Below, one piece after another: positions 2,454 to 27,374 of a stretch of 34,687 bases of DNA (positions are counted from its first letter, which is position 1; every line of letters starts with the position of its first letter). The position numbers were made by a program, and so were the translations under genes. The notes under the pieces were generated by a model that worked only from the letters and a program-made list of their open reading frames with translations, searched no databases and was not told the DNA's origin. Source of the stretch: Polyangiaceae bacterium (GTDB taxonomy: Bacteria > Myxococcota_A > Polyangia > Polyangiales > Polyangiaceae); assembly GCA_044222475.1 (NCBI GenBank), contig JBGANF010000008.1, positions 1 to 34,687 on the forward strand. The letters run 5' to 3'.

Positions 2454-5117
2454 GTGAGCAACCACGAGTGGCGATGGGCAGATCCCGCCGGACAGCAGCG
2501 TCTGGTCCGTACGGACGAGCTGAGAGCGGCTCTTTCGAGCGGTCTGATCCCCGCAAATGCCCCGGTCTGGCGGCGCGGCTGGACCGAGTGGAAGCCGGCT
2601 CAAGAGGTGCCCGAGCTCAGCCAGAGCGCGCTCGGTGCGGCGAACGGGGTGCTCTTGAACGTGCCGCCGCCTCCGCTGTTCGTCGTCGCTGCCCAGAGTG
2701 AGTTCGAGGGCGAGGGCGGGGACGACGCAGCCGAAGAGGAGCCGCCGCCACCGCCGAGGTACGTGCCGCTCGCTGCCCCTGCGCCGCCGGCGGTGCCGCC
2801 GGTGGTCACGGACGCCAAGCCCAAGGTCGCCGAGGCGCCGAAAGCCGCCGAGAAGCCGAAGACACCCGAGGCGTCGCCGAAGCCCGCGATCGTCGTCCCG
2901 AAACCCGCCGAAGCGACGACGAAGCCGATGCCGGTTCGCGCGAAGGACCCGCCCAAGATCCCGCCCGCGCCGATGCCGATCAAGCCCGCCGCGAAGACCG
3001 TGCAGACGGCGCCGGCCGCTACCGCGAAGGCGCCGGCCGTCGCGCACGCGCCTGCTCCAGCGCCCGCCGCGCGCGCGGGCTTGCCGCCGAGTCCACCGCC
3101 GGGCAGCGAGATGCGTTCGATCCCGACGATGCGCGGCATTCCGGTGATCCCGGATCCGACCAAGGTGCCGAAGATCGAGATGCCGCACGTCGAGAAGACG
3201 GCGCCGATGCCGCGCGTGGAGCCCGTCCCTCACGACGCACCTTCGTCGATCAAGCGCGCGACGTTGCCGGTCTTCCCGGCGCCTCCCCCGATGACGAAGG
3301 CCGACGAGCCGTCGGCGCGACCGCCGCCCGAACCTGCACCGGTCGTGGTGCCGCCGCCCGCGGACTCACCGCAGCCGGCCCTGAGCAAGCACCCGACGTT
3401 GATCCAGTTTGGTGGTGCTCCCGAGTCGACGCCGCCACCAGCCGAAGCCGCACCGATCGTGGTACCGCCGCCCGAGAAGAGCGAGGTCACCGGGGGCTCC
3501 GTCACCCGACCGCCGCCGTGGGGCGAAGGCGCAGTAGGGATGGCGCCCGACATCCCGAAGTCGACGCCTGCGCCGAAGATCGCTCCGGAGAACGTGGAGG
3601 AGCTCAGCGGATCGATGCTCCTCCCCGAGTCGATTCCGCCGCCGTTGCCCGCCAATCGTCCGGTGGAGCTCAGCTCGTCCGACCTCACCTCCGAAGCCGA
3701 GATCGTCGTCGCGAAGCCGGCGCCGCTGGTCCCGGGCGAGAAACGCGCCGGCACGTTGATGGGGATGGCCCCGCCGCCGCTCACCAAGAGCGAGAAGCCG
3801 CCGAAGCGCGAAGAAGAGCCGCTGCCGGCCAAGACGGAGCCGATGAAGGCTCCGCCGAAGATGGAGGAAGACGCCGTCCCTCTGCCCCGTCCGAGCGGCG
3901 CACGGACCATCAACCTGCGCGAGATCGCTCGGGAGCGCCCGCCGTGGTTCCTCGCCTCCGCGGGTGCGTTCGGCGCGCTCCTCTTCATCGGGCTCGTCGG
4001 CGTCGTGATGAAGATCGCGGGGAGCGGCAGCGGAGCGACGACGGCCACGAGCGCGAGCGCCACCGCTGCGACGTCCGTCGCGCCGACCGTGTCCACGACA
4101 CCCACCGCGGTCACGACCACGACCGCGCCGTCGACTCCGAAGTCCGTGACGTGCGCCGTGTCGGGGAAGCCGAAGACCATCGCCTCGAGCGCGATGGTGG
4201 GGAGCGGCGTCGAGGTGCGTGCCAGCGGCGGCGGCGTCGCGCTCGCGTTCGCCACGAGCCCGAAGGACGGAACACTCATGGTGCTCGATCCGTCGACGCT
4301 CGACGCGACGTCGACGTCGCGCGCCAAGTCCGCCGACGCCATTCGACGCGTCGTCGCGCTGAAGAGCGGCGTCGCGCTCGACTCCGATCGCAAAGGCGAC
4401 AAGCTCCAAGGGCGCCGCACGGTCGTGACCAACCCGCCGATCGATCTCGGGTCCGACGGCACCAACCTCGCGTGGGCCGCCCACGGGACCGACAAGACGA
4501 TCCCGCTCTGGCCGCTCGGCGGCACCGGACCGGTCGAAGCCATCCGCGCAGAGCAGACCGACGCCGCGACGTTCGTCGCGTTCCGCCAAGGCACGAGCAT
4601 CTACGTGGGCGCGTTCGGCGGCACTCCGCCCGCGCCGCTCGGCGGGCTCACGAAGATCGACGGATTCGGTCCCAAAGTGGGATCTCCGGCGATCGCTGCG
4701 AGCGGCGACCACGCGCTCGTCGTCTGGGCGGATCGCGCCGCCGACACCGATCCTTGGGGGCTCCGCTACGTAGCGTTCCAGGCCGGCAAAGACGCGCCCG
4801 CAGCGAAGAAGTTCGACGTGCCCGCCGGCGGTCTCGGCGAGCACGCGATGTCTCCCGGCGTCGCCAGCCTCGCGGGCGGTCACTACTTCCTCCTCTGGGC
4901 CGAAGGCCCCACGTCGAGCCATCAGGTTCGCGGCATCGTGCTGGACTCCGCCGGCGCGGCGCACGGTGACGCGCTCACGGTGAGCGCAGAAGGAGTCAAC
5001 GCCGGTCAGGGCCAAGCCGCGGTGCAAGCCGACGGCAAAGGCGTCGTCGCTTTCCTGGCCGGAAGCGGCAAGTCGTTCGACGTGATCGCAACCTCGATTG
5101 CATGTACCGAAAAATGA
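2454..5117 (+). CDS. Membrane protein with N-terminal DUF4339/GYF-like domain, long Pro/Ala/Lys-rich linker, one TM helix and a C-terminal beta-rich extracytoplasmic domain
   Basis: GTG start preceded by GGAG 7 nt upstream. The N-terminus EWRWADPAGQQRLVRTDELRAALSSGLIPANAPVWRRGWTEWKPAQEV matches the DUF4339 (GYF_2) consensus. ~450 aa of PxxP/AP/KP low complexity follows. The TM helix is WFLASAGAFGALLFIGLVGVVMKIAG. A Ser/Thr-rich spacer and a ~330 aa Gly/Ala/Val-rich C-terminal domain follow. Confidence 0.7.
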   Translation: MSNHEWRWADPAGQQRLVRTDELRAALSSGLIPANAPVWRRGWTEWKPAQEVPELSQSALGAANGVLLNVPPPPLFVVAAQSEFEGEGGDDAAEEEPPPPPRYVPLAAPAPPAVPPVVTDAKPKVAEAPKAAEKPKTPEASPKPAIVVPKPAEATTKPMPVRAKDPPKIPPAPMPIKPAAKTVQTAPAATAKAPAVAHAPAPAPAARAGLPPSPPPGSEMRSIPTMRGIPVIPDPTKVPKIEMPHVEKTAPMPRVEPVPHDAPSSIKRATLPVFPAPPPMTKADEPSARPPPEPAPVVVPPPADSPQPALSKHPTLIQFGGAPESTPPPAEAAPIVVPPPEKSEVTGGSVTRPPPWGEGAVGMAPDIPKSTPAPKIAPENVEELSGSMLLPESIPPPLPANRPVELSSSDLTSEAEIVVAKPAPLVPGEKRAGTLMGMAPPPLTKSEKPPKREEEPLPAKTEPMKAPPKMEEDAVPLPRPSGARTINLREIARERPPWFLASAGAFGALLFIGLVGVVMKIAGSGSGATTATSASATAATSVAPTVSTTPTAVTTTTAPSTPKSVTCAVSGKPKTIASSAMVGSGVEVRASGGGVALAFATSPKDGTLMVLDPSTLDATSTSRAKSADAIRRVVALKSGVALDSDRKGDKLQGRRTVVTNPPIDLGSDGTNLAWAAHGTDKTIPLWPLGGTGPVEAIRAEQTDAATFVAFRQGTSIYVGAFGGTPPAPLGGLTKIDGFGPKVGSPAIAASGDHALVVWADRAADTDPWGLRYVAFQAGKDAPAAKKFDVPAGGLGEHAMSPGVASLAGGHYFLLWAEGPTSSHQVRGIVLDSAGAAHGDALTVSAEGVNAGQGQAAVQADGKGVVAFLAGSGKSFDVIATSIACTEK

Positions 5118-9933: not shown

Positions 9934-10020
9934 GGGCCGAAATCATTGTAGCATCCAGGTTTTTCGCGCGCACAAGCGGTTTCCACTCTGCACCCGGCGT
10001 GCTAATTCGCCCTACCTGTC

Positions 10021-10326
10021 ATGTCGGCCATGTCGGATCGCTTCGTCGCTGTCGTCACGCTCGTCGCGCTCGCCTTGCTGGTGGGCTGCGGGCGCAAGGC
10101 GACCGAGGCCGATTGCCAGGTGATCGTCGACCAGATGGTCGTCGTGAAGATGAAGAAGAAGAACAACACCGATCCGGCGGCGGTCACCAAGCTCCAGGCC
10201 GAGCTTCGCGAGGAAGCCAAAGGCGAAGTAATGGATGGCTGCGTCGGTCGGCGAATCAGTGACGGCGCTCTCGATTGCATCAAGAAGGCCGAGACCCAAG
10301 AGGAAATCATCACGTGCATGCGCTGA
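10021..10326 (+). CDS. Small lipoprotein, 5-Cys family (copy A)
   Basis: Signal peptide plus canonical lipobox LLVGC. Mature pattern C-GRKATEAD-C ... C-x12-C-x12-C. It is lower GC and Lys/Glu-rich, unlike GC-artefact ORFs. Confidence 0.55.
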   Translation: MSAMSDRFVAVVTLVALALLVGCGRKATEADCQVIVDQMVVVKMKKKNNTDPAAVTKLQAELREEAKGEVMDGCVGRRISDGALDCIKKAETQEEIITCMR

Positions 10327-10638: not shown

Positions 10639-10962
10639 TCACTTCTTCTTCACGGCGCGGCCGCTGAAGACCTGCTTGCCGTTCTCCATCGACGGCTTGT
10701 CCGATACCTGCCACACGGCGTCGCCGCCGAGCTTGCACACCTGATCGAGGAGCTCGCGCATGCAGTCGTCTTCCTTGACGAGCGTCGCATCGCACGACGC
10801 GCGAACGGGACCGATGTTCGTCGTCGCGACGTTCGGCGCGTCGCGGTAGACCTCGACGTCACAGCCGGCGGGCCGCTCGGGGAAATTCGGGGTCGCGTTG
10901 TGACCGCCGCCGCATGCCGCGAGAGCGAGCGCGCCAAGGGTGAGCGTGCCGATGAGTCTCAT
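10639..10962 (-). CDS. Small lipoprotein with 5 Cys (unrelated to the A/B family)
   Basis: [20 protein letters not shown] signal peptide and lipobox. Only the last 107 codons of the track ORF 10639..11346 are protein-like. The ATG overlaps the glyQ stop as ATGA. It ends 4 nt from the convergent lipoprotein B. Confidence 0.55.
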
Positions 10963-11879
10963 GCGCGTGCCTCCGCGTGCTTGGACTTTCCGTCGAGGAG
11001 AGGAAACCCGAGCGCCTCGCGCTGCGCGAGGTACGCCTCGGCGACGGCCTTCGCGAGGCCGCGGACGCGCCCGATGAAGCGCGCGCGCTCGGTGACGCCG
11101 ATGGCGCCACGAGCGTCGAGGACGTTGAACTGGTGCGCCGCCTTGACGACGAAGTCGTACGCGGGCAGCACGAGTCGCTTCAGCGGCTCCTTCTCGCTCC
11201 CGAGCGCGAGGAGGCGCTTCGCCTCCTTCTCGTAGTGGTCGAAGTGAGCGAAGTGCGCCGCCGTGTCGGCCTGCTCGAAGTTGTACGTGCTCCACTCCCA
11301 CTCGGCGCGCTTCGCGATCTCGCCGTAGCGGACGCCCTTGGCCCACATCACGTCCATGATGTGGTCGACGTCCTGCAGGTACATCGAGATGCGCTCGAGG
11401 CCGTAGGTGAGCTCACCCGAGACCGGCTTGCACTCGATGCTCCCGACCTGCTGGAAGTACGTGAACTGGCTGATCTCCAAGCCATCGAGCCAGACCTGCC
11501 AGCCGAGACCCCACGCGCCGAGCGTCGGCGACTCCCAGTCGTCTTCGACGAAGCGCACGTCGTGCTCTTCCGGCACGGTCCCGATCGCGCGGAGCGACTC
11601 GAGGTAGAGATCCTGGATGTCGATCGGCGACGGCTTGAGGATCACCTGGAACTGGTGGAACTGCTGGAGCCGGTTCGGGTTGTCGCCGTAGCGGCCGTCG
11701 GAGGGACGACGCGACGGCTCGACGAACGCGACGTTCCAGGGCTCGGGGCCGAGCGCACGAAGGAACGTCGCCGGGTTGTAGGTACCGGCGCCGACTTCGG
11801 AGTTGTAGGGCTGAACGATGAGGCAGCCGCGTTGCGCCCAGAAATTCTGCAACCCGAGGATGATGTCTTGGAAGTACAT
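10959..11879 (-). CDS. glyQ: Glycine--tRNA ligase alpha subunit
   Basis: Full-length (306 aa). It aligns by eye with the E. coli GlyQ consensus, for example [55 protein letters not shown] and [24 protein letters not shown]. Confidence 0.92.
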
Positions 11880-11881
11880 GG

Positions 11882-14800
11882 TCAGTCGATTCGAGCGAGG
11901 AGGTCACGCGCGAGTTGGCGTGAAGGGTCGTCGTCGATCGCCCGTTTCAGTAGCATCACCGCGCGCTTGTTGTCGCCGGCTTCGAGCGCGAGCTCGCCGA
12001 GGCGCTCGTAGGCTTCGGCGCGCGACATTGGAGCCTGGGCGCGGAGCATGGTGATCGTACGGAGCGCGCGTGTCTCGATCTCGGTGCTGCCGAGCTCGCG
12101 CGCGACCCACGCGAGCTCGGAGGCGACGGCGCCGTTTTGGCCGTCCATGTCGAGCGCGGTGCCCAGCATCGCGAGGTCGTTCCCGCGATCCCCGGAGGCG
12201 CGGGCTACGCGGGCGAGGCGGAGATAGACGTGCGACAGCTCCTTGCTGCGGCGGCCCTTGTGCTTCTCGAGGACGGCGCGCAGGAGCTCGTCGGCGGCGG
12301 CGAGGTTGCTCTGACCGATGTACGCGTCGGCGAGGAGGCTCGTGCACTCGAGGTCGCCCGGTTTGATCTCGAGCGCGCGGCGGAGGACGTCGGTCGCGGC
12401 GGTGGCGTCGCCGCCTTCGCCGAGGAGGAGCGTCGCGGCAGCGACGTAGAACGGCAGGCGCTTCGGCGGCTCGGGGATGCGCTCGGCCTCCGCGATGCGC
12501 AGCGCCGCGAGCGCCTGAACGTCGCCCAGTGCGCCGTAGATCTCGCCGAGCTTCTCGCTGACGCGTTCGTCCTCGGGGGCGAGGCGATGTGCGCGTTCGA
12601 GTCCGGCGCGCGCATACCCCGGCGAGCCGGTGCGGGTCGCGCGATCGACGAGGCGGAGCGCGATCTCGGCGACCTCGGCGTCGGGGACGACCTCGACGAG
12701 ACGCGCGAGGACGTCGGTCTCGGCGTCGACGCGATCGGCGCGGGCTTCGAGGTCGGCGAGCGCGCGAAGCGCTTCGGCGTCCTGCTCGTGGGTCTGGAGG
12801 ACCTGCTCGAGCTGGTTCCGCGCGTCGTCCGTCCGACCGAGGGCGTCGCAAAGCGTCGCGAGTCGCACGCGGTACGAGCGTCGATCGTTCTCGTCCGTCG
12901 TTCCAGCGGCGGCGAGCGCGAGGATCTCGGAGAGGTGCTCGGCGAGCCGGCCGTCGTCGCGATACGCCGCTTCGCCGCTGTCGACGGCCTCGGCGAAGCG
13001 CTCGGTGCGAAGCGCGAGGCGCGCCCGCTCGAGGAGCCACGCGGCCTGCATCGGGGTGCCGCTGACCTGGGACTCGAGGTTCGACAGCTCCTCCCACGAC
13101 GAGGCGACGTCGTCGGCGTCGGCGAGGGCGCGGTAGTACGCGATGTGGGTCGTGTCGGCGGCTCCTGGGATCGCGTACGCGCCGCGCATCACGCGGACGA
13201 CACCGGCCGTGTCGCTGATCGCTCCGTAGTGGCGCGCTGCCTCGAGGAACGCTGCTTCGGCCTCGGCCGGAACGAGCGCCGCGGCCGTCGTCTCGTGGAG
13301 CTTCGCGAGCTTCGCGGCGTCGTTGCGTTCGGTGTAGATTGCAAGCAATCGCTCGCGGAGGTTCGCGCTCTCCGGAGCGGCGGCGAGACCGAGCTCCAGC
13401 GCGCGCTCTGCGCCCTCGCTGTCCCAGGCTTCGTTGCGGACGGCGAACAGATCGAGGGCGAGCTTTTCGCCTTCCTCGCCCCGGGTCTGCTCGAGCAAGC
13501 GCTCCAGCAGCTCCGCGCGGTCGACGCCCTCCGATGCCGGGATGACGCGCAACGCGCCGCGGAGGAGCTCGGGGTTCTTCGCTTCCCAGTCGAGCCCGGT
13601 CGCGTACACCGAGCGCGCCTTTTCGGCGTCGTCGCCTTCGAGCAGCTTGCCCAGTCGCGCGGCGACGGTGGCGACCCCCGGAGCGTCGGCGCGGTCGCGC
13701 GCGGCTTCGAGTCGTCGTTCGAGGAGGGCGACGAGCTCGCTCTTGTCACCGCTGCCCTCGAGCAGGTCGACGAGGACCGTCGCCGCGTCTTCGGAGAGCG
13801 GATCCTCTTCGAGCACTTCGCGCAGCTCGGCGATCGCTTCGGTCGCTCGATCGAGCGCGGTCGCGAGCAGCTTCGCGTGCTCGACGCGGAGGGCGCTTCG
13901 CTCCGGGGATGCCGAGTGGAGCGCCGCCGTCGTACGCAGAGCTTCTTCGAGCTCCTCCTTCGTCCCGTGGGTTCGGAGGAGCGCGAGCAACGTGCCGCGC
14001 AGCTCGAGGTCGTTGGGCTCGGATGCGAGCACGGCTTCGATCGCCTCCCGCGCGATCGCTGGCGTCGTCCCGGCCGCCTGCGCGACTTCGAGGCGGAGCT
14101 TCCTCGCCTCGGCGGGGGGCAGCGTGGTGGCCGCCTCGAGGCGGAGCCGCGCGGCCAGGGCGGGATCGCTCGCTTCCCGAAGCGTCGCGAGCTCGAGGCG
14201 CGCCCAGCGTCCGAAGTCGCCCTCTTCGCTGATCGAGCGCTCCAGGATCACGTCGGCGACGTCGAGCTTGCCGGCGCGCTTCGCCTCCTCGACGCCTTCT
14301 CGGTAGAGCTCCGGCGTGCCGCAACCGGCGCGTGCCGAGAGCTCGATCGCGCGGAGCAGCCGCTCGGCGTCTCCTCGCGTTCGGGCGATGCGTTCGTAGA
14401 GGTGGAACAGCGCGGGCTCGGTCGCGCCCTCGAGCGCCGGCTCGAGGATCTTCAGCGCGCGCTCGTGATCGCTCTGCTTCTCGAAGGCGGATTTCAGGAG
14501 AGCGGCGCCAGAGGCCCGATCGCCTCCGGGCTTCAGGCGCAGCTCTGCGAGTCGATACTCCGCGTCGGCTGCGGCCTTGGGGTCCTTAGCGCCTTCGGCG
14601 AGCGCCGCGATCAACCGCGCGAGGACCTTCTCCTGGCGCGGGTCGTCCGTCTTCGCGTAGGTGCGATCGAGGGCTCGGAGGACGTCGGCGTTCAGCGGAT
14701 CGGCGTCCGACGCGCGCTCGAGGACCGTTGCGGCCCTCGCGGAGTCGCCGGTCTCCTCTTCGATCACCGCTGCCGCGCCGTGGAGAAGCTGCGCTGCGTC

Positions 14801-17800
14801 CTTGCCGTTCCCTTCGCTCGCGAGGCGATCTCCGAGCGCGAGGAGGCGCTCCACGTAGCGCTCGGTCGTGCCGCTCTTCTTCGCTCCAGCGAGCGCGGCG
14901 TCACGGAGGGCGCGGCTCGCGGGGGCTGCCTCGAGCGCCGTGAGCCGGGTGTCGAGCGCGCCTGCGTCGTCGCCGAGCTCTTCTTGTGCCCGCGCCATGT
15001 CGGCGAGGACTTGGGCGCGCTTCTCTCCACCCTCGGCGCGCTCCAGCCGGCCGCGGAGGGCGCGCAACAGGAGGTCGTTCTTCTTCTTCGCGCGCAACGC
15101 GTCTTCGAGTCGAACGGCCTCCGCGTCGGACGTCGTCGCCGCTTCGAACGCGGACTCGACGATCTCCGCTGCGCGCTCCTTCTCGTCCTGGCGATCGGCG
15201 ATCTCGGCGAGCTCGATGAGGACCTCGCTTCGCGCGACGGTCATCCCGTCGGAGTCGCGGCGCAGCACAGAGAGGAGGGCGCGGTACGAGCGCTCGGCCT
15301 TCTCGAGCTGGCCGTCGTCACGCGCGAGCTCGGCGACCATCCGGAGGATCTCCGGGTTGGCGGGATCGATGCGGGTCGCCGCCTCGAGCTCGGCGAGAGC
15401 GGGCGTGCGCTCGCCCAGCGCGAGCAACAGACGAGCGAGGTGGAAGTGAACCTGCGCGCGCTCCTTGGGGCGTCGTCCGCCGAACGCGTCGAGCATCGAG
15501 CGGAGGAGGGTGCGCGCGTCGTCGGGGCGGCCCGCCGCGGTGAGCGCCTGCGAGAGTCGGAGGCGAAGCGCGCGATCGTCGGGGGCGAGCTCCGCTGCTT
15601 CGGACAGGAGCTCGGCGGCTCGGCCCGGAGCCTGGCATCGCGTGAGCCAGAGATCGGCGGCCTCTTCGAGGCCGCGACGCTTCTCGGCGGGCGTCTCGGC
15701 CTTCGACGCTTGACGGGTGAGCAGATCGGCGAGCGGCGCATAGAGCTCGGCTTTGCGGTAGAGCTCGGCGAGACGCTGCGGGACCTCCGCCGGCGACCCC
15801 GTCGCTTCGACGGCTGCTTCGAGGTGACGCCGAGCGTCCTCCTCGTGACCGGCGGTGACGAGGGCGTCAGTGAGGCGGAGGATGACCCCCGCTCGTCGAT
15901 CGGGGAACTTGTGAAGCAGCCGCTCCAGGTACTGCGCCGCGGCCGAGTGGTCGCCCTGGCGTTCGTGGAGCTTCGCGATGGCGTCGAGGTCGTCGGCCTC
16001 GACGACCAACGGCAGCACGCGCTGGAAGTAGCCGAGCGCCGCCGCCGTGTCGTTCTGGCGGGAGTCGGCGAGAACGGCGGCGCGACGGAACATCGTCGCC
16101 GCGGCGTGGATGTCCCCTTCGGCCTCGGCGAGGTGGGCCTGTTCGGCAAGGAACGCGATGAGCTCCGCGTTGCGACCAGCGGCCTCGAGGACGTCGATGA
16201 TCATCGCCGCGCTCTCGGCGTGGCGCGGCTGCTCGCTGAGGTTGTCCTTGAGGAGCGCCAGCGCTGCGTCGGTCTTGTCGAGCGAGCTCTCGAGCGCCGC
16301 GGCGTCGAGTCGAAGCGGCAGCCGCACCGCAGCGGTCGACGCGCGCGCGATCTGCCGCTTTCGCAGCGCGAGGAGATCCGGGCGGCGATCCAGCGTGCGA
16401 AGCACCGCCGCCAAGCGCTCGGCCGCGAGCGCATCATCGGGGTCGTCGCCTTCGAGCTCGGCGTACAGTCGGAGGGCGGCCTCCTGGTCGCCCACGCGCT
16501 CGAGGGCCATGCGAGCGGCCTCGTGACGAAGCTCGCGCGCGCGCGCGGTCTCGAACGGGAGGCGAGCGGTCTCCGACAGCAGGCTGACGATGCGCTCCGC
16601 GTTGCCTTCTTCGTTGTGGATGCGCACGAGCTCGCCCATCGCCCACTCGACGTACTCTCCGGGGTGGCGCGGGGAGCCCTGGGTCAGCGGCGCCTCTTCG
16701 GTGTCGGCTTCGCCGACCCAGCGCTCGGAGGCGAGCTTCAGGAGGCGTTCGAGGATCGTCTTCGCGAGCCCGCGGTCCACCACGACACTCGCGGCGACGT
16801 CCGCCGCCTCGCGCAGGAGCTCGGGGTCGCCGCCGGTCGCCTGCGACAGGCGCAGCAAAGTCTCGATCAGGGGGCGCCCTCGGGTGCGACGCTGGAGCTG
16901 AGCGAGCGCCCGGAGGAGGTCGGCGTTCGTACCATCTTGGGACAGCGCGCGGGCGTACGCTGCTTCGGCGGCGTCGGGATCTCCGCGGCGATCGCGGTGC
17001 CACGTCGCGATGCGCGCCTCGAGATCGCGGACGACGTTCGCGGGCAGGCCGCTGCGCTCGGCAAGCGCGGCCTCGAGGGCTCCAGTGGCCGCGTCCCAGC
17101 CGGCGTTGCCGGTGACCCGAGCCTCCAGCTCACCGAGCAGCAGGTCGTCGACCTGCCCGAGCGCGGCAGCTCGGTCGATGATGACGCGCGCGGTCGCATC
17201 CCAACGCTGTACGCGGGCGCCCACGCGAACGGACGCCACTCCCGCGACCTCGTCCAACGGCGCCTCTTCGGCGACCCGGAGGTACAACGTCAGCGCGGTG
17301 CGCGGATCATCGAGGTGTTGCTCGAGCACGTCAGCGAGGCCTTTCCGGAGCCTCGGGATCGCCTCGCCGGTCGTGCCCGAAGCCTCGAGCGTCTCGAGGA
17401 CGGTCCTCAGGACCTCGGCGCGTGCGCGCTGATTGTCCGACACGGCGGCGAGACGCGCGAGGGTCGCGTCGATCGCGATGTCGCCGCGCGAGAGCACGAA
17501 CGCATCGCTGCACGATCGAAACGCGGCGGCGGGGTCGAGGCCGCGATCCTCTTCGAGCTTCGCGGCCTCGAGGAGGATCGCGATTCGCGCTTGGTCGTCG
17601 GCGGCGATGCGAAGTCGGTCGCTCTGGAGCTGCAGCACGTCCCGCCACGCGTCGCGAGCGCGGTGGTCGGCGAGGAGGACGTCCATCGCCGACGTCGCCG
17701 CGTCGCCGTCGCCGAGGAGCGCGGTGAGGCCCGCGATCGCTCCGGGGTGTCCCGACTCGGCTTCGAGCGCCGAGCGGTAGTCCACGACCGCCTTCGCCGT

Positions 17801-20800
17801 CGCTCCCAAGTGCACTCGCCGGAGATCGCCGAGGCGCACGAGGATCGCCGCGCGTGACGCTTCGGGGGCGCTCTCGGCGGCGCGCACGAGGAGCTTGGAC
17901 AGCTTCTTCCAGTGCGATCCGCGCTCGTAGAGGTCGGCGAGCGCGAGCGTGCTGTCCTCGGTCGCGCCGAAGTCGTGCTCGATGCCCTCCCACGCCTTGA
18001 TGGCCGCCTCGTCGTCGGCGAGCTCGCCGCCGAGCAAGCGCGCGGCGCGCACTCGATCGGCCTGCTTGTCCGCTTCGCTCGGCAACAGTCGCGCGCGCCG
18101 CTCGAGCGCCTCGTACAGCGGCCGGTGACGACCGCTCGCCTCGAGAATCGCGACGAGACCGTGAAGCGCCACGAGGTCGGACGAGTCTTCGGCCAGTCGA
18201 GCTTCCCACGCGGCGATGCCGCGATCGATCTCACCGAGCGACGCCGCGAGGCGCGCCGCCTCGCCAAGGGCGCCACGGCGCTCTTCGGTGCGCGTCTCGA
18301 GCTGAGCGATGCGCTCGAGGACCCCGAGTCGCTCCGGTTCGCGTCCGGCGCGCTCGAGCAAACCCTCGAGCGGACGCGCCGCGCGGAGGAGCACCTCGTG
18401 GTCGACGTCGAACGCGAGGACGCGGAAGTAGAGATCGATCGCCCGACCGGGATCGGCGAGGCGGTCGGAGTGCACCACCGCGGCCTCCATGAGCAGCGCG
18501 ACGCGTAGCTCGTCGCCTTCGCACTCGTCGGCGGCTGCGGCGAGGACCTCGGCGAGGCGATCGTGGCGTCCGGTGCGCTCGGCGAGAGAGGCCAATTTCT
18601 GGCGATGGGGGGCCGAGTCGGGCTCGAGCATCACGAGCGAGACTCCGTGCGCCAGCGCAGCGACGTCGTTGCCGATGCGCTCGTAGAGCTCGACGAGCTC
18701 GCGGTGTCGCCGGATGCGCTCCTTCGCGCTCTTCACGTCCTCGAGCTCGACCTCGAGGACACGCGCGAGATCGACGTCGCGTCCGAGCTGGGCGTAGCGC
18801 TCGCGCAGCAACCCGGCGGCGCGTTGGCGCACGAGCACTCGCTTGCTGCGGCTGCTCTTGCCCGGCGGTGGAACCGATGCGCGGGGCGGCGCAACCGAGG
18901 CACGCGCCGGCGGAACCGACGCGCGGGGCGGCGGGATGGACTCGTACGCCTGGGCGATGCGCTCGCTCAACGGCGAAGAGGTCGGGGGAAGCGTCTTCTT
19001 GAGCTCCTCCGCCGGCGGAGCGGCGGTGAGGATTTGCTCGAGGAGCTCGCGGGTGGTGTCGCCTTCGTCTCCGTCAGCGATCATGGCTTCGACGACGAGG
19101 AGCGCCGACCCTGCGTCCGAGAGCTCGTCGAGCCACAGTCGCGCGATCCGGCCGCGGAGCTCCGCGATCTGCTGCGGAGTCTTTCCGCCGAGCTGCGCCT
19201 CGAGGAGGCCGACGAGCTCGCGGTGTCGGCCGTGGCGCTCGTAGAGGCGCTCGAGCGAAGCGATCAGTCGATCGTTCTTCGGTTTTCGGAGGAGCAGCGC
19301 TTCGAGGTACCGCATCGCGCGGTCCGCGTTCTTGGCGAAGTCCTTGGCGATCTGAGCGGCGTCGGCGAGGAGCTCGACGCGCCGCCCGTCGTCCAGATCG
19401 GTCGCGAGGACGCGGTCGTAGAGCACGAACAGCTCGTCCCAGCGCTCGGCCGCGTCGTAGAGGAGCTTGAGGCGATCGAACGCCCAACCGCCCGGATCGA
19501 CGGTGACGATTCGATCGAGGATCTTCACCACGCCCGTTCGCTCTTCGAACCACTCTTCGTGGAACGCGACGGCGCGCTGGCCGAGCTCCTCCGCCTGTTC
19601 ACGATCGGAAACCCGCGCCACCACGCCCTGGTAGAGCTCCGCGAGATCGAGCGGCTGATCGAGATCGCGGGCGAGCTGCTCGGCGCGATCCCATCGATCG
19701 GCCACGTTGGGCAGCTCGTCGAGCGCCCGCAGGATCGCGGCGAACTCTTCCTTCGGTCCGCGAGCGCTCGCAGCCTCGATCGCGCGATCGTGCCAGGCCG
19801 CACGCCGCTCGGGCGACGCGGAGCGTGCGCCTCGGAGCAGCGCGTCGAGCGCGCGCGATTGCGCCTCGGCGTCGCCGGCCTTCGCGATCGTCTCTTCGAG
19901 CAGCGCAGCGGCCGCGTCGCCGGCCTCGGGATCGGCGACGAGGTCGGCGGTGAGCTTCAGGGCCTGTGCATCGTCGGGAGCGAGCGCGAGCACCTTGCTC
20001 AGCTCGTCGAGGGCCTCGCGAGCGCGGCCGCCTTGCGAGACGAGGATCGCCGCGACGTCGCCGCGGATGCGACGCGCACGGTCGGCGTCGGCCCCGTTCA
20101 GTTGATCGCGCAGAGACGCGAGCGCGCCATCGACGTCGCCGCGGGCGAGCGTGATGCGCGCGATCTCGGTCGCGGCTCCGGTCGCCGGATCGACGACGTT
20201 GGCCTCGCGGTAGAGCTCGAGCGCGCGATCCGTGTCCTGGAAGCGGGTCTCCGCCGTGCGTGCCCAGTCGAACAGCACGACCCCTCGCTCGGGCCCGCCC
20301 GCGCGTCGAGCGCGCTCGCTGAAGAGCCACTCCCAATCGTCGCGCGGCGCCGACTCGGGGTGGGTTTGGAACAGCAGCCCCATCTGGGCGAGCGCGTGGA
20401 CGCGGATCGCGTCCGCCACGCGATCGTTCTCCGCGAGCGCGCGGAACGACGACGCGGCGTCACCGATGGCGTCGGGGAGGTTCGCCAGCACGGCGGCGCG
20501 CTCGAGGAGGATCGGGGCTCGGGCATCGACGTCCGCGATTTGGGCGAGCGCGCCGTCGACTGCGCGCAAGAACACGTCCGTGTGTCCGCTCTCGCGCGCG
20601 AGTCGCGACGCGAGGGCGAGGGCTGCGGGATCTTGAGGCGCGTCGCCGAACGCGCGCATCGCTGCGTCGAACGCGCCGTCGCGATCGCCGCAGCGCTCGA
20701 GCGCGCTGGAGAGGTGCAAGAGCGCGTCGCGTCGCTCCTCCACCGTCGCGGCGGCTTCGACGCGAGACGCGTAGAGCTCGGGGAGGAGCGCAGTCTCGCC

Positions 20801-23800
20801 GCCGTTCTCTGCGATGGCGATCAGCTTGAGGGTCGCGTCGCGATCGTAGGGGGCGATCTTCCGGATGCGCTCGAAGAGACGGCGCGCGGTCTTGATGTCG
20901 TCCACCTTCTCGGCGATGGCGGCGGCGCGATGGAACGCCGACACCGCGCCGGCGATCTCGCTTCGCTCGACGAGCACGCTGCCGAGGCGAGTGAGCCACA
21001 TCGTGCGCTCCTCGTCGTTCTCCGAGGCATCGGCGCGGCGGGACATGACGTCACCAAGCAGCGCGCGCTCCTCGAGCTGCTCGGCGACGCGCTCGACGAG
21101 ATCGAGGTCGGTCGCGGTCGCGAGCTCGTCCTCCACGAGGGCGCGCGCGTGGGCGATGGCGCGATCGCGCAGGCCGTGCGCGGTGGCGAGGTCGGCGATG
21201 CGTGCGTGCAGCGCGCGCTCGTCCGCGCCGGGGGCCGTCCGTACGAGCTCGTGTTCGAGGATGCGGCACGCTTCGAGCCACGCGGACGACTCGAGGTACA
21301 GCGCGAAGAGAGCTTCGGCCGACCCACGGTCGTCGGGATCTTCCTCGAGCGCTCGCACGAGGGTGGCTTGCGCTGCGGTCACGTCACCGAGCTCGGCTCG
21401 CTGGAGCTGCGCGATCCCGGCGAACAGGGTGCGGCGCTTCGCCGGGTTCTGCTCGACCTGGAGCGCGCTCTGGTAGAGCCGCAGCCGATCCTCGGGGGTT
21501 CCCTGGTCACGCAGGAGGAGCTCCACGCTCGCCATCACGTCCGGCGACGAAGGAGCGAACGCGAGCGCGCGCTGGAACGCGTCCAGGGCGCCTGCGCGAT
21601 CGCCGGCGCTCATCGCCGCGTCTCCCGCAGCGCGAGCGAGGGCGAGGAGCTCCGGGCCATCGACGGCTCGGTCACCGAGCGCGCGCCGAAGGGCGGTCGC
21701 GCGACGACGAGCGCCTTCGTCGCCAGGAGCGAAGTGATCGATCGCGCCGATCCACGGAGCGAGCGCGGCGCCCGACTCGACCGCATCCCCGAGGGCGGCA
21801 GCGGCGAGGTCGAAGGCTCGCGCACGCTCCTGCGGCACCGATTCGGCTGCTGCGAGCGCGGCGGCGGCCGCGGCGAGCCTCGTCGGGGCGTCGGGACCGC
21901 GGGTCGCGCGAACGCATTGAACGTGGAACAGACCGGCGTTCGCGCCCTCGTGGCGGTACACGGGCTCGAGCACGTTCGCGGCGGCGATCGCGAGCGCGTC
22001 GTCCTTGCCGTCGAGCAATCGCTCGAGCGCGTCGCGGCTCGTGGTCTCGTTCGGGTTGGCCTCGAGCGAGGACGCGAAAGCCTCGATCGCCCCGCGGGGG
22101 TCTTGGAGGTTCTGCGCGCGGAGGATGCCGAGAGTCGCGAGCGTGCGCGCGCGCTCCTCGCCCGACCAGAGGTTCGACGCCATCGTCAACGCGCCATCGA
22201 GCGCCGAGAAATCGCGTCGGAGCTCGAGGAGCGGGATCCATCGTGCGACCGCCTCGCGCGAGGGGCCGAAGCGACCGATGAAATCGCGCCACGCCGCGGA
22301 GGCGGCTTCGATGTTGCCCGACGCTTCGGTGAGAGCTTCGGCGGCTCGTTGGAGCAACGCTCGTTGCTCTTCGACGTCCGTCGAGTCTTCCGCGCGAGCG
22401 CGGAGGACCTCTGCCAAGCCGATCGCATCGCCGATGTCGCCGAGCAACGGCTCCAGCGCTGCGAGCGCCTTGGCGCGCGCCGGCGTGTCGAGGAGCGCTC
22501 GCCACGAGCCGATCGCCCGAGCGGGATCTCCGAGAGGTCCGGCGGCGAGCGCCGCGAGCCGCTCGGCCGCGGCGAGGCGGCGATCGGGCTCGGGCTCGAC
22601 GCGCGCCATGCGATCGAGCATGTCCGCGAGCGATGCGTTGTCCTCTTCTTCCTCGTAGAGGCGTGCGAGCGCGCGCACCGCGCCGAGGGTCGCCTCGTCG
22701 GTTGCTCCCGGCACGGAGAGCGCGCTCGAGAACGCCGCGCGAGCGCGGCGCACGTCGCCGTTGGCGAGCAGGAGCTCGCCGCTCGCCGTGCTCAGGCGCG
22801 CGCGTGCGTTCGGATCCTTGGCCAAGCCGAGAAGCCGCGTGAGCGTCTTGGCGCTCGCCTCGTGCTTGCCGAGGACGCGAGTGAGGTTGACGTAGCGCTC
22901 GACGAGAGCACCATCGTTGGGATCGAGGCCGAGCGCGGCGTCCGCCGCCTCGTAGGCACCGGCCGGATCGTCGAGGTGGTCTTCGCGCAGCGCCGCGAGC
23001 GCGCGAAGGACGAACGCACGCCTCGGTCCGCGCGCTTGCTCGAGCTCGAGCATGTAGTAGCGCGCCGCATCGGAGTACGAGCCTGCCATCTGAGCGGCGC
23101 CCGCGAGCGCGGCCGCTGCTCGCGCGACAGTGGCGCGACCTTCGAGGAGCTGCACCGCGACGTCGTGAGCGCGCACGTCGTCCGGGTGCTTGGACAGGAT
23201 CCACTCGACGTGCGGGAGGCTGCGCTCGAGCTCGCCGACGCCGGCGTAGGCGTCGAGCAGCTTCCAGCGCATGTCGAGCTGAACGTCGTCGGCCGGCGCC
23301 GGGTCGTGGGTCAACGCTTGCTCAAGGAGCTTCGCGACCTCGCGCGGCCGATTCGCGCGAGCGAGTGCGTCGAGGAGACGCGCTCGTGCCTCGTCGTCCT
23401 TGGGATCGATTCGGACGAGCACGGTCAGCGCGTCGGCGACCTTGTCGACGGCGTCGACGCGCTCGTACGCATCTGCGGCCTTCCGATAGAGGTTCACCTG
23501 CTCGGCGCGCGGTCTGTGCGACGCGAGCTCGGCGTACATGTCTCCGATTCCGATGAAGTTTCCGTCGCGCGCGAGGATCTCCTCGCGTCGGGCGAGCGAG
23601 CCTGCGTGAGTCGGAACCGCGGCGAGCGCTCGGTCGAGGTACGCGGCGGATCCCATCTCGTCGCCGAACGCGTCCCCGAAGAACACCGCGGCTTGGAACA
23701 TGAACTCGGCGACGACGCCGGCCTGGAGCGTGCGCAACCGGCGGTCGCCGGTGAGCTGCTCGAACGCGAACGCGAGCTCGGCGAGGCGTTGATCGCGCTG

Positions 23801-23962
23801 AGCCGCTTGCCCGAGGCGATCCCATGCACCGTCGTCGAGCTGTCCCTTGCTCATCGCGAGAAGGAACGCGTCCAACACATCGGCTTCGTTTTCGAGGCGG
23901 GTATCGAGCGATGCGAGGACGGCTGCTAGTCCACCGGTCGCGCGGTTACGAGGTTCGGTCAT
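11882..23962 (-). CDS. Giant (4026 aa) all-alpha TPR-like repeat protein, function unknown
   Basis: A single uninterrupted 12,081-nt ORF. Its translation is consistently helical and Ala/Leu/Glu/Arg/Asp-rich, with recurring TPR-like hairpins (for example ...[32 protein letters not shown]...). The reverse-strand ORFs (1906 aa and 1788 aa) are RG/RR-rich artefacts. The stop lies 2 nt before the glyQ start. It contains one short 8-aa internal repeat, [23 protein letters not shown]. No catalytic motif recognised. Confidence 0.8.
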
Positions 23963-24043
23963 GTCCCTGTCGCGCGCTTGGACGACGAAGCGCGGACCTC
24001 GAAGGGTATCAAGGTCGGGGAATGCAACCTACCGCACTGACGT

Positions 24044-25339
24044 TCAGGTCGCGATCGTGCGGTATGGATCGCCCGACGAGGGCGTATTGCCGTTTTTCCC
24101 TCGAATGAGGCCGGCCGCGCGGGTCGCCACGACGGTGCCGATCCCCAGGAAGACGACCGCGAAGGTGACGATTCCACCGATCCACGGCAGCGAGCCGAGG
24201 ACGAGGAAGAGTGCGCAACCCACGAGGAGGTGGACGTGCGGGCTGTCGCTGCGGTGCCCGAGCAGGGCCTTGCCCGCCGTCGCGAGCACGGCACACACAC
24301 CCGCGTAGCTCGCGAACACGGCGGCAGGAACGGCGACCACTGCAACGGGGATTCCGATCACGCTCACGCAGAGCGCGACGACGAGGACGATGCCGGCGAT
24401 GAGGCCGACGATGCCCATCGCGAACGTGCGCATCGGTCGCGCGGCGACCTCGGCGCGCAGCGTGTCCATGCGCTGACCGGCGAGGGCGAAGAGGACGGCG
24501 CCGAAGACGAAGAGGAGCGCCGAGCGCGCGAGCGCGTCGCCGATCTGCTTCAGCACGCCGGACTTGTGCTCGCCGTCGCCACCGACGGTCACCGCCGATC
24601 CGACGACCGACTTCGAACCGCGATTCAGCACGCCACCGACGACGCCGACCTGGCCGTCGATCTGAGCGTCGTCTTCCACGTCGAGCTCGCCGCCCACCGC
24701 CGTCGCGTTTCCGACGATGTGGGCACCCTTCACGACCTTCAGCGTCCCGCCCGTGACGACCGCGTTGCCGGTCACCGTTCCTCGGACCGTCAAGTCGCCG
24801 CCGACCACGCTCACGTCGTGAACGATTTCGTTCGCCTCGATGACGGCGTCGTCGCCGTTGACGACGCGGTCCGATCCGCGGACCGACGGGAGCGGTGCGG
24901 CCTTGAGCGCCGCGGAAGGTGCCTCGAGCGGCGCTGCGTCCGCCTCAGCGGCGGTCGCGGCCGGTGCGGGCGCCGCCGTCTCGGCGCTGCGAACCGAGAC
25001 GAGTGCGCCGTCGCGCTTCGCGGTCCACTTTCCGTCCGCGAGGACGATGTCGAGGATCTTCGACGGGCTCTCGTCCTTCACGTGAAGGTCGATGCGGTCC
25101 TTGTCGCCGTCGACGTCGTCCATGCGGAGGACCAGGTTCCACCCCGCTGCCTCGGCGAGCTTGGTCAGCGCGTCGTGGCGAGAGACGTGCGCGAGGTCGA
25201 GCGAGACCTTCTTCTCCTCGGCGGGCGTCGGCCAGGTGCCGGTGCGCTCGACGTCGGCGAACGCGAGGGACGTCGTCGCGAGCAGCGCGGCGAGGGTGGC
25301 GGCGAGAGTCACGGGACCTACGGCGACGCGCTTCATCAT
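24044..25339 (-). CDS. Membrane protein: signal peptide + STN-like (secretin/TonB N-terminal type) domain + Ala/Pro linker + bactofilin/DUF4097-like beta-helical repeat + C-terminal 4-TM bundle
   Basis: MMKRVAVGPVTLAATLAALLATTSLAFA signal peptide. VSLDLAHVSRHDALTKLAEAAGWNLVLR...ILDIVLADGKWTAKRDGALVSV resembles the STN signalling domain. VVGGDLTVRGTVTGNAVVTGGTLKVVKGAHIVGNATAVGGELDVEDDAQIDGQVGVVGG resembles polymer-forming/bactofilin or 'putative adhesin' beta-helix repeats. Four C-terminal TM helices. The ATG overlaps the anti-sigma stop (ATGA). Confidence 0.65.
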   Translation of the reverse strand: MMKRVAVGPVTLAATLAALLATTSLAFADVERTGTWPTPAEEKKVSLDLAHVSRHDALTKLAEAAGWNLVLRMDDVDGDKDRIDLHVKDESPSKILDIVLADGKWTAKRDGALVSVRSAETAAPAPAATAAEADAAPLEAPSAALKAAPLPSVRGSDRVVNGDDAVIEANEIVHDVSVVGGDLTVRGTVTGNAVVTGGTLKVVKGAHIVGNATAVGGELDVEDDAQIDGQVGVVGGVLNRGSKSVVGSAVTVGGDGEHKSGVLKQIGDALARSALLFVFGAVLFALAGQRMDTLRAEVAARPMRTFAMGIVGLIAGIVLVVALCVSVIGIPVAVVAVPAAVFASYAGVCAVLATAGKALLGHRSDSPHVHLLVGCALFLVLGSLPWIGGIVTFAVVFLGIGTVVATRAAGLIRGKNGNTPSSGDPYRTIAT

Positions 25340-25839
25340 GACAAGACTCCACGTTGGGTGCGCGACGCGCGCGCGATGATCGCGCCCGAGAGCGCGAGGA
25401 CGGCAAAGACGGAGAACGCGACAGCGGCACCGAACGGACCCTGGGTGAGCGCTGCCGCGATCGCGCCGGCGGCACCGGCGAGCTGCGGAACGAGCTCGGG
25501 GAGCGAGGTCGCGATCGAGAGGGCGTGGAACGAACGATCCGCGAGTGACGGAGCGAGGCCGAGCCCCGCGAGCGCAAGTGCCGCGAGGACGAGGCCGGCG
25601 GGGAAGCGCCGCGCGGCCCGCGTGCGCTCGGCGGCGACCGGCGCGAGAGCGACACCGACTTCGAGGGCGAGCGTCGCGAGGTTCGCGAGTCGACCCGCGC
25701 ACTGCGTGCACGACTCGGCGTGATGCGACGCTTCGTCGCCGACGATCTCGATCTCCCCATCGCCGAGCGCGGCCAGCGCCGCGTCGGAGAGGTGGCCGTC
25801 TTCCAGCCAGAGATCCTGTGGTTGCAACGTGCGACTCAT
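25336..25839 (-). CDS. Anti-sigma factor, zinc-finger (ZAS, HxxxCxxC) type with C-terminal TM region
   Basis: 167 aa. ASHHAESCTQCAGRL is the HX3CX2C zinc motif. Two C-terminal hydrophobic segments. Its start overlaps the ECF sigma stop by ATGA. Confidence 0.7.
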   Translation of the reverse strand: MSRTLQPQDLWLEDGHLSDAALAALGDGEIEIVGDEASHHAESCTQCAGRLANLATLALEVGVALAPVAAERTRAARRFPAGLVLAALALAGLGLAPSLADRSFHALSIATSLPELVPQLAGAAGAIAAALTQGPFGAAVAFSVFAVLALSGAIIARASRTQRGVLS

Positions 25840-26411
25840 GACGACTCCTCGGCGAGAGTCTCCGCCAGCGATCGGCGTGCGCGGAGAATCCAGGTGGCGA
25901 CGGTGCCGACGGGGATGCGGAGCCGGGCCGAGATTTCGGCGTAGCTCTTTCCTTCGGCGTGAAAGAGAAGGAGCGCCTCGCGCATGCCGCCGGGGAGATC
26001 GGCCAGGGCGGCGTCGAGCCGCTTGCGATCTTGGGCATGGGCGAGGCGATCGAAGGGAGAGGGAGCGGAGTCGGGGATGCGATCCGCGACGTCGGACTCG
26101 GAGTCGTCGCTGCGCACGGTGGCGATGCGGGCTCGCGCGCGGTGGACGTCCATCGCGACGTGCTTCGCGATGCCGATCACCCAGGGACGAATCGGCTCGC
26201 CGGCGCGGATCCGCGCGGAGCCCTCGATCGCACGCCGCATGGTCTCGGAGACGGCGTCGTCGACGTCGGCGTGCGTCGGCGCGCAGCGGAGCGCTGACGC
26301 TACGATCGCGCGAACGAGCGGCCGCAGCGCGGCGAGCTCGCGAGGGAGCTCGGTCGCGGCCGCGGACGGCGTGGCGTGGGCAAGGGGAGGGAGAAGCAGC
26401 ACCGCAAGCAT
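25836..26411 (-). CDS. RNA polymerase sigma-70 ECF-family sigma factor
   Basis: 191 aa. Region 2 has PWVIGIAKHVAMDVHR (DNA-melting/-10 recognition). Region 4 HTH is GKSYAEISARLRIPVGTVATWILRARRSL. Confidence 0.85.
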   Translation of the reverse strand: MLAVLLLPPLAHATPSAAATELPRELAALRPLVRAIVASALRCAPTHADVDDAVSETMRRAIEGSARIRAGEPIRPWVIGIAKHVAMDVHRARARIATVRSDDSESDVADRIPDSAPSPFDRLAHAQDRKRLDAALADLPGGMREALLLFHAEGKSYAEISARLRIPVGTVATWILRARRSLAETLAEESS

Positions 26412-26483: not shown

Positions 26484-27374
26484 CTACTGAGTTTTGTGGG
26501 TGACGCCCAAGACGTTCGGGATCGACCAGAAGGTGTCGTTCTTGTCGTCCGCGAGGAACCCGGTCTCGAAGCTGCCCATCTCCGACACCGCACCGGAGAC
26601 CCACAGCGACGCCTCGGGGCCACCCTCGACGTGCATGGCGGTGTCGAGGTCGAGCTCGGGAGCGGCGAGGATCTTCGCGAGCTCGGTCATCGAGTAGGGC
26701 GTTCGCGCGTGAATGAACACGACGTTGCCCTTGCGATCCGTGCCGAGCACCGCGGCGCTGAAGAGCTTCGGATCCTGCCACGCGATCGGTTTCCGATCGC
26801 AGTCGAGGAGCCGGTAGTTCTGGACGACGGAGCGGTACTCCGTGCGCAGCCGCGCGAGATCGAAACCGGCGCAGTCGCGCCCGACCGAGACGACGGGCGG
26901 CGCGCCGGCGTTCACCGGATCCCACGCGAAGAAGCCGCCGAACTTGTGGTTGTCGGAGCCGTTGTTCGTCACCGGGCCGGACACGAGCAGCCCGACCGAC
27001 CGGCGATCTTCGCCGTACATCGACGCGTTGATCACCGCGACGAGCTTCGCGTCCTTCGCCCACGCGGGTGCGGTGCGAGAACCGCCCTCGACCTGTGCGG
27101 TGTGGAGCTCCAGCGCGAGCTTCGTGGGGTCGATGCGGACGATCGTGACGCATCGATCGCCGACGCCGGCGCTCGACGCCAAGGGTGCGAGGTACCGATC
27201 GACGGTGAGCCCCGGCTCGACGGTCGTGCGGAGCGCCGGGGAAGCGCACTTCGCCGGCGTCGCCGTCGGGCTCACGGAGTCCGCGCTCGCGGTGCTCGGC
27301 TTCGGGTCGTGCTTGCAGGCGCCTGCGGCGACGACGGTCACCAGGACGATCGTCGCGCCGCGCGCGAGGTTCAC
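26484..27374 (-). CDS. Lipoprotein, phosphodiester glycosidase (DUF2233/NAGPA)-like, tentative
   Basis: GTG start overlapping the upstream stop (GTGA). Signal peptide with AAGAC. ~270 aa periplasmic domain. Family assignment is from general resemblance only. Confidence 0.5.
   Translation of the reverse strand: MNLARGATIVLVTVVAAGACKHDPKPSTASADSVSPTATPAKCASPALRTTVEPGLTVDRYLAPLASSAGVGDRCVTIVRIDPTKLALELHTAQVEGGSRTAPAWAKDAKLVAVINASMYGEDRRSVGLLVSGPVTNNGSDNHKFGGFFAWDPVNAGAPPVVSVGRDCAGFDLARLRTEYRSVVQNYRLLDCDRKPIAWQDPKLFSAAVLGTDRKGNVVFIHARTPYSMTELAKILAAPELDLDTAMHVEGGPEASLWVSGAVSEMGSFETGFLADDKNDTFWSIPNVLGVTHKTQ

Follow-up and report, generated by a model that had tools for sequence, protein, structure and literature searches.

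The stretch of DNA considered here (hereafter the window) comprises 34,687 nucleotides (nt) of contig JBGANF010000008.1 from a Polyangiaceae bacterium (assembly GCA_044222475.1) and has a GC content of around 70%. On its reverse strand lies a single open reading frame (ORF) of 4026 codons and a stop, followed at once by glyQ and preceded by a sigma/anti-sigma module. We argue below that this giant ORF is a genuine gene, that its product is predicted to be one very long solenoid of tetratricopeptide repeat (TPR) type, and that it represents a family conserved across the Polyangia which resembles, but is distinct from, the gliding motility protein GltI. The gene, those segments of its product (numbered in amino acids, aa) to which the text returns, and two ORFs antisense to it are listed here, with model confidence given as the predicted local distance difference test score (pLDDT).

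11882..23962, reverse strand: giant ORF, ATG start, TGA stop, 4026 aa, 435.6 kDa, pI 5.0; predicted cytoplasmic TPR-like alpha-solenoid of ~110 hairpins
11885..14884, reverse strand: C-terminal 1000 aa, modelled as an unbroken 56-helix solenoid, pLDDT 90.3
15113..15562, reverse strand: most conserved block, aa 2801-2950, with canonical TPRs (TPR_8 at 2836-2869, TPR_19, TPR_11)
16763..17812, reverse strand: segment aa 2051-2400, found in the ~4000-aa size class of the family and missing in the ~3470-aa class
18833..19000, reverse strand: Pro-rich linker, aa 1655-1710, predicted to be disordered (pLDDT below 50 at residues 255-263 and 275-308 of the modelled tile)
19013..19612, reverse strand: block aa 1451-1650, among the most conserved, with an invariant FHEEWF and WDRAEQ neighbourhood on which the search for relatives was based
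12137..17857, forward strand: antisense shadow ORF of 1906 aa inside the giant gene, GC1 > GC3, non-coding
18563..23929, forward strand: antisense shadow ORF of 1788 aa inside the giant gene, GC1 > GC3, non-coding

By our own arithmetic, 4027 successive open codons have a chance probability of about e^-73 (at ~71% GC, where stops make up ~1.8% of random triplets). Openness by itself is weak evidence here, because the opposite strand carries shadow ORFs of 1906 and 1788 aa. Composition by codon position separates the two cases. The sense frame has GC contents at first, second and third positions (GC1/2/3) of 0.80/0.49/0.86, its codon periodicity is uniform in 14 of 14 tiles of 900 nt, and it shares the relation GC3 > GC1 with every other real gene of the window. 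The shadow ORFs invert this pattern, with GC1 of 0.85-0.87 and GC3 of 0.79-0.80, and are indeed the compositional junk for which an earlier, sequence-only reading of the locus had taken them. Such shadow ORFs could mislead gene callers on genomes of this kind.

Comparison with relatives leads to the same conclusion. Against the closest of them (L003, 82% identical) the ratio of non-synonymous to synonymous substitution rates (dN/dS) is 0.21 overall and lies between 0.15 and 0.26 in each 400-codon tile. The start codon is common to homologues, one of which (P0004) likewise starts MTEPRNRAT, and intact collinear ORFs of 3459-4075 aa are present in 35 other genomes. Together with the periodicity and the TPR matches in Pfam (see below), these observations identify the giant ORF as a genuine gene under purifying selection, and its exact coordinates, ATG and TGA agree with the single 4026-aa ORF first proposed. 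The contrary idea, that it is a compositional open frame, a pseudogene or an assembly artefact, takes what strength it has from the ease with which long spurious ORFs arise in high-GC genomes, as the shadows of 1788-1906 aa illustrate, and from the frameshifts that split some relatives' copies. We regard its probability as negligible, refuted as it is by periodicity, purifying selection, TPR domains, confident structural models and the 35 further intact orthologues; nor do the split copies help it, since they are broken at differing positions. That resequencing might reveal several genes or a pseudogene is made improbable by the same intact orthologues and by a dN/dS of around 0.2 in every tile.

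The split copies deserve a comment of their own. In several assemblies the giant is broken up into two or three ORFs, and the homology is picked up again in the shifted frame. These are probably indel errors, because the breaks fall at different positions and the homology carries on beyond them. The contig suffix 'np1212' borne by two split copies is taken, from the names, to mark indel-prone long-read assemblies. The gene is a good indicator of assembly indel errors.

The protein is rich in A (19.7%), L (14.1%), R (11.0%), E (9.5%) and D (7.9%). Its domain matches in Pfam are of TPR type only, with no enzyme domain: TPR_19 scores 54.4 bits against a cut-off of 25, TPR_8 47.4 (25.7), TPR_14 44.1 (23.5), ARM_TT21_5th 37.9 (27.8) and TPR_11 33.8 (26.8). 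An NCBIfam scan, in which no GltI model exists, gave generic TPR matches below threshold only, and a sequence search of the PDB retrieved only designed or consensus TPRs, OGT and BcsC. Autocorrelation with BLOSUM scores has peaks at lags of 17, 34, 71-72, 108, 143-146 and 180, those from 71-72 onwards being multiples of ~36.

Two 1000-aa tiles, aa 1401-2400 and aa 3027-4026, were modelled with AlphaFold2 from alignments. The first (pLDDT 88.1) contains 55 helices and is disordered at aa 1655-1710 only, while the second (pLDDT 90.3) contains 56 helices and no disorder; in both the helices are 12-18 residues long and form a continuous alpha-solenoid. Searches of the PDB with Foldseek placed Ski3/TTC37, IFT139/TTC21B, Ctr9, OGT and spliceosomal HAT/TPR proteins at the top for both tiles, with E-values for the best TPR scaffolds of 1e-9 to 6e-15. 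The half of the protein outside the tiles has TPR matches and the same periodicity as the modelled half. By extension from the models, the whole protein is predicted to comprise ~225 helices, or ~110 hairpins of ~36 aa, in one continuous TPR-like solenoid with one break. The all-helical TPR-like character originally ascribed to the protein is thus upheld by Pfam, autocorrelation, the AlphaFold2 tiles and Foldseek, which all agree.

The same reading had supposed the helical-repeat composition to be uniform throughout, and this holds apart from one stretch. A scan of composition found one island only, Pro-rich and centred around aa 1660-1705, and this corresponds to the linker at aa 1655-1710, the sole non-helical island among the 2000 modelled residues. 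The search for hidden non-repeat islands has therefore uncovered a single one. The linker is limited to the window's clade, most family members having none.

No transmembrane (TM) segment (maximum KD19 hydropathy 1.38), Walker A motif or CxxC motif is seen in the giant protein, and no signal peptide is conserved among the N-termini of the family. These results bear out the claimed lack of enzymatic, TM and secretion motifs in the Pfam, hydropathy and Walker A scans, and show a protein that, as judged from its sequence, is cytoplasmic in character. They also dispose of several other identities. A STAND NTPase with a TPR sensor is excluded by the lack of a Walker A motif and of any NTPase match in Pfam or NCBIfam, and a secreted adhesin by the lack of a signal peptide and of beta repeats; a non-ribosomal peptide synthetase or polyketide synthase was also considered and discarded. 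The exonuclease SbcC was rejected since there is neither a Walker A motif nor an AAA or SMC match in Pfam. Three proteins from metagenome-assembled genomes (MAGs) at NCBI (P0008, P0010 and P0029), which are partial fragments of the family, bear the name 'Exonuclease SbcC, partial', a mis-annotation.

Relatives were sought with a degenerate-peptide scan covering one genome per species. This identified 68 loci in 68 different assemblies, all from uncultured Polyangia and assigned to Polyangiaceae, Polyangiales, Labilithrix, Nannocystaceae and a Sorangium sp., with a best identity of 82%. The ORF is intact at 36 of the loci. These 36 full-length sequences can be aligned over their entire length, at identities of 31-81% and with gaps limited to six segments, and share an N-terminal cap (ELAFAYE...AEF...FF.D.GD) as well as the C-terminus. 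They fall into two size classes, of ~3460-3545 aa and ~3880-4075 aa, the shorter of which lacks aa ~2050-2400. On this sequence evidence the window protein belongs to a single-copy family of 3.5-4.1 thousand residues conserved end to end across the Polyangia, and the phylogenetic distribution left to be checked by the earlier reading comes to one locus per assembly. At nine loci of the ~3470-aa class (L023 and L052 among them) the stop codon of the giant coincides with, or lies only a few bases from, the start of a gene for a Cys-rich protein of ~100 aa (CxxC...CxxC); from this arrangement, the product of that gene could be a translationally coupled partner.

A protein database searched with tiles of the giant yielded nothing longer than ~1800 aa, so that neither full-length relatives nor GltI could be seen there. 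An exhaustive HMMER search with aa 1401-2050 as query, on the other hand, gave 641 cluster representatives at the cut-off of E<=1e-30, and the best 150 matches include 74 representatives of at least 3300 aa. The names of the clusters are nearly always absent or merely 'TPR repeat protein'. Among the top matches, the giants that reach 3300 aa or more form four groups. Two are collinear clades of one family, the window's own and a second; the others are a family of ~3750 aa and a group containing P0188, P0192 and P0205. Giants of this kind had been thought rare and poorly characterised; within Myxococcota the number of large representatives contradicts the rarity, although the window's family is indeed uncharacterised, a literature search having found no paper on it. 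A cultured member exists in Chondromyces crocatus Cm c5 (WP_050434324.1, UniProt A0A0K1EPA5; 4045 aa, 'tetratricopeptide repeat protein'). Its aa 1-703 (39% identity) and 3695-4022 (34%) are in register with the window protein; its place is in the collinear group G2, a sub-clade other than that of the window protein. The last ~330 aa are in register with the C-termini of both this protein and the ~3750-aa family.

Shorter relatives were also encountered. One of 1699 aa (L083; ERZ26871208 contig_213007) matches window aa 1407-1554 and 2624-4008, and its gene adjoins those of an FHA-sigma54 activator and a Ser/Thr kinase. A class of ~2600 aa (P0215, Sandaracinaceae) is collinear with window aa 1424-4016. 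The gene contexts of P0056 (Kofleriaceae), P0007 and P0061 were uninformative.

The presence of giant TPR proteins in myxobacteria immediately raises the question of the relationship to GltI (AgmK, MXAN_4863) of Myxococcus xanthus, a 3822-aa cytosolic TPR protein which is required for gliding, is found at focal adhesions and has been predicted to be a multivalent scaffold of ~1100 Å (PMC4508894, PMC11761067, PMC3169522). GltI binds the FHA domain of GltG and, as a prediction, the GYF domain of GltJ (PMC4508894, PMC11761067). For the comparison we used a group of giants identified by position. In one MAG a giant (L080, split into 1449+2491 aa) lies directly downstream of a 1195-aa TPR protein and of glt genes whose best NCBIfam matches are GltE (1e-28), CglF/GltF (1e-20) and GltG (8e-23 and 1e-59), in other words a gltD-E-F-G cluster. 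The L080 giant is 44-48% identical to, and collinear with, P0192, and groups with P0188 (3819 aa), P0192 and P0205, as does an Anaeromyxobacteraceae fragment. Because the L080 giant sits in the gltD-E-F-G cluster, this group is, by position, the GltI family.

One could then suppose that the window protein is simply its lineage's orthologue of GltI, a gliding-motor scaffold that was relocated from the glt cluster and evolves fast. The sizes are similar (4026 and 3822 aa), both are cytoplasmic TPR proteins of Myxococcota, gltI homologues have been reported in Sorangium, Plesiocystis and Haliangium (Luciano et al., PMC3169522), and the similarity to the glt-cluster giants is significant, with repeat-level E-values down to ~1e-31. 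That similarity is out of register, however. Within the glt-cluster group the giants are mutually collinear, at 32-48% identity over ~3450 aa and 1500-2600 bits, while the window protein matches L080, P0188 and P0192 at 22-28% identity, at no more than 130 bits and in several shifted registers. Furthermore, assembly ERZ25039549 (apparently a single MAG, judging from ERZ25039548, which is MAG MFD05705.bin.2.131) carries on separate contigs both the glt-cluster giant L080 and a window-family giant, L082, split by frameshifts into 1623+848+988 aa, and this co-occurrence argues for paralogy of the two families. The NCBIfam GltE, GltG, GltJ and CglF models had no match among the window proteins scanned, and the flanks of 45 family loci contain no glt-like cluster. 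Orthology with GltI is consequently quite improbable in our estimation. The weak, out-of-register matches and the presence of both types in one assembly show the window protein, relative to the glt-cluster giants and at the level of sequence, to be GltI-like rather than a GltI orthologue, with similarity at the level of repeats only. A characterised giant family with the potential to account for the protein thus exists, in GltI/AgmK, but collinearity and the glt cluster speak against membership of it.

The ~3750-aa group was also considered as a candidate for GltI, and rejected, since its metagenome loci show DUF374-aminotransferase and dnaX-like genes and no glt genes. These giants have a conserved context of their own, seen in L072, L076 and L077, where the giant is followed by a DUF374 gene and then by a class IV aminotransferase gene.

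What, then, might the window protein do? On balance we favour the view that it is a multivalent cytoplasmic docking scaffold of GltI-like kind, one continuous TPR-like solenoid distinct from GltI itself. Three strands lead to this reading, namely the fold class, solved representatives of which all hold hetero-complexes together, the precedent of GltI, and the end-to-end collinear conservation of the family. A repeat protein that remains collinear at ~35% identity must have each of its repeats individually constrained, and such constraint is what position-specific docking sites would produce. By analogy, the ~110 repeats and the published 1100 Å estimate for GltI lead us to expect an extended superhelix roughly 100 nm long. 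Through its position-specific repeats it would bind a wide range of partner proteins and thereby give order to a large assembly in the cytoplasm or at the inner membrane.

Several points weigh against this proposal. The scaffold role is an argument by analogy only; no family member has a known partner, localisation or phenotype, and the flanks of 45 loci hold no conserved neighbour that would point to a pathway. The overall shape, extended or folded back, is left undecided by the models, whose predicted TM-score (pTM) values are 0.43-0.46. Lastly, the GltI group with which the window protein was contrasted is defined by the position of a giant in one MAG, not by the M. xanthus sequence.

It might alternatively be a self-assembling, cytoskeleton-like strut or a molecular ruler, and not a docking platform. 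Its extreme length is tightly conserved, in two discrete classes of ~3470 and ~4030 aa, the solenoid is continuous, and the gene is single-copy with no obvious partner genes, all of which would suit a strut. We nevertheless consider this unlikely: oligomerisation motifs are not in evidence, comparable TPR solenoids of known structure are scaffolds within hetero-complexes, and the dN/dS of ~0.2 and block-wise conservation fit multiple specific surfaces.

The genes surrounding the giant were examined for further clues. In order along the window they are as follows, together with a promoter-like element upstream of the giant.

2454..5117, forward strand: bitopic membrane protein of 887 aa; GYF_2 domain at the N-terminus, very long Pro-rich stretch, single TM segment, extracytoplasmic C-terminal domain
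10006..10326, forward strand: TIGR04454-family four-Cys lipoprotein gene, the next gene beyond glyQ and on the opposite strand to it
10959..11879, reverse strand: glyQ (glycyl-tRNA synthetase alpha), ATG 2 nt past the giant's TGA
24003..24012, reverse strand: TTGATACCCT, extended -10-like element, 40 nt upstream of the giant's ATG
24044..25345, reverse strand: 433-aa membrane protein whose homologues carry Pfam DUF8173; stop 81 nt upstream of the giant's ATG
25336..25839, reverse strand: ZAS-type anti-sigma factor, HHAESCTQC (HxxxCxxC) followed by TM segments; weak RseA match
25836..26411, reverse strand: extracytoplasmic function (ECF) sigma-70 family factor (Sigma70_r2, r4_2, TIGR02937)
26484..27368, reverse strand: lipoprotein-like gene of ~280 aa between an aminotransferase gene and the ECF sigma gene, absent from the matching interval of L001

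The position of the giant behind a sigma/anti-sigma module, remarked upon by the sequence-only reading, is as described: the ECF sigma, the anti-sigma, whose start overlaps the stop of the sigma gene, and the DUF8173 protein all lie upstream on the same strand. The DUF8173 protein contains a segment weakly resembling STN/PilQ-N, a repeat region rich in Val and Gly that is beta-helix-like by eye (no Pfam match), and a multi-TM C-terminus. The giant could accordingly be thought a component of this signalling module, for example as a cytoplasmic sensor or a scaffold for regulators that controls the sigma factor or is under its control, given that it follows 81 nt downstream with no terminator between and that the arrangement is kept in the closest relatives (L001-L006, L010, L021 and L069). 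Yet the module is missing from the flanks of most family loci, where the giant is equally conserved, and the -10-like motif that separates module from giant also occurs at loci without the module. We hold this to be very unlikely.

Of 36 family loci, 10 have that motif, TTGATACCCT, ahead of the giant, the background frequency being 0.0024 per 150 nt. Scans for sigma-70 promoters and terminators had no relevant result in the stretches separating the giant from the gene upstream and from glyQ. Since the element recurs at loci whose upstream genes differ and are unrelated, it suggests that the giant has its own promoter; a transcript would then begin at the TGATACCCT element, ~30 nt before the ATG, and run into glyQ. 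No Shine-Dalgarno sequence, terminator or promoter-like site was seen at the junction of the giant and glyQ. The operon with glyQ envisaged earlier fits this tight spacing, and the two genes are probably co-transcribed and translationally coupled. The glyQ gene has no adjacent glyS.

The combination of sigma module and glyQ is seen at ~11 of 70 related loci, all in the nearest clade, so that the synteny is kept there and not elsewhere. Clustering the flanking ORFs of the 45 loci produced no cluster present at more than 13 of them and none that is glt-like; those seen include LysM-esterase, STK, small Cys-rich protein, MenE-like, SDR and HU clusters. Because the arrangement is clade-limited and a conserved motif suggests that the giant has a promoter of its own, its neighbourhood says little about its function.

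A possible lead is nonetheless offered by the 887-aa protein encoded elsewhere in the window. Pro-rich peptides are the ligands of GYF domains, and the giant's linker is Pro-rich; an interaction of GltI with the GYF domain of GltJ has also been predicted, and by analogy the GYF_2 protein may be a candidate reader of the linker. Its architecture recalls that of GltJ, and it has no match to the NCBIfam GltJ model.

To our knowledge no part of the myxobacterial gliding motor is less well understood than GltI, which has so far been treated as a one-off. The present results show giant TPR solenoids instead to make up several ancient, separately conserved families in Myxococcota, one of which, that of the window, has been kept intact, collinear and single-copy in the 36 genomes with a readable full-length gene. 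It provides comparative material on what the length of a scaffold and its individual repeats encode, and suggests that Polyangia contain at least one large cytoplasmic assembly for which nobody has yet searched. A more speculative idea, which we put forward tentatively and think doubtful as it stands, is that Polyangia possess, in addition to GltI, another giant TPR solenoid, universally conserved, single-copy and fixed in length (~100 nm), which acts apart from the gliding motor as a cytoplasmic ruler or organising scaffold of a kind new to bacteria. If this were true, it might organise, for instance, cell-envelope, polarity or developmental machinery, and together with GltI and the relatives of ~3750, ~2600 and ~1700 aa it would constitute a Myxococcota-specific 'mega-TPR' superfamily.

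Among known structures the best matches to both tiles are Ski3/TTC37 of the SKI complex, IFT139/TTC21B of IFT-A, Ctr9 of Paf1C and the TPR domain of OGT. These eukaryotic scaffolds share with the window protein a continuous TPR superhelix, which in their case holds multi-protein complexes together, and Pfam TT21 ARM/TPR models match the window protein. They are 3-4 times shorter, and identities of 11-18% with global TM-scores of 0.11-0.19 indicate a likeness of fold class only, homology beyond the TPR clan not being implied.

Other parallels lie within bacteria. The giant TPR proteins of the ~3750-aa family (P0108, P0116, P0160 and others; L072-L077), from high-GC metagenome contigs, are partly collinear with the window protein and have the C-terminal ~330 aa in register with it. 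They nevertheless form a separate cluster. Their alignments with the GltI group are collinear, at 27-28% identity and ~870 bits, which places them nearer to that group than the window family. GltI itself, like the window protein, is a giant (3822 aa against 4026 aa) without signal peptide or TM segment, built of TPR-like hairpins and specific to Myxococcota. Unlike GltI, the window protein is encoded outside a glt cluster, is not collinear with the glt-cluster giants and has a different N-terminal cap, and the members of its clade possess the Pro-rich linker. The window protein is not one that has already been characterised, yet it has precedents, being a member of a distinct, conserved and uncharacterised family of the GltI-like 'mega-TPR' kind.

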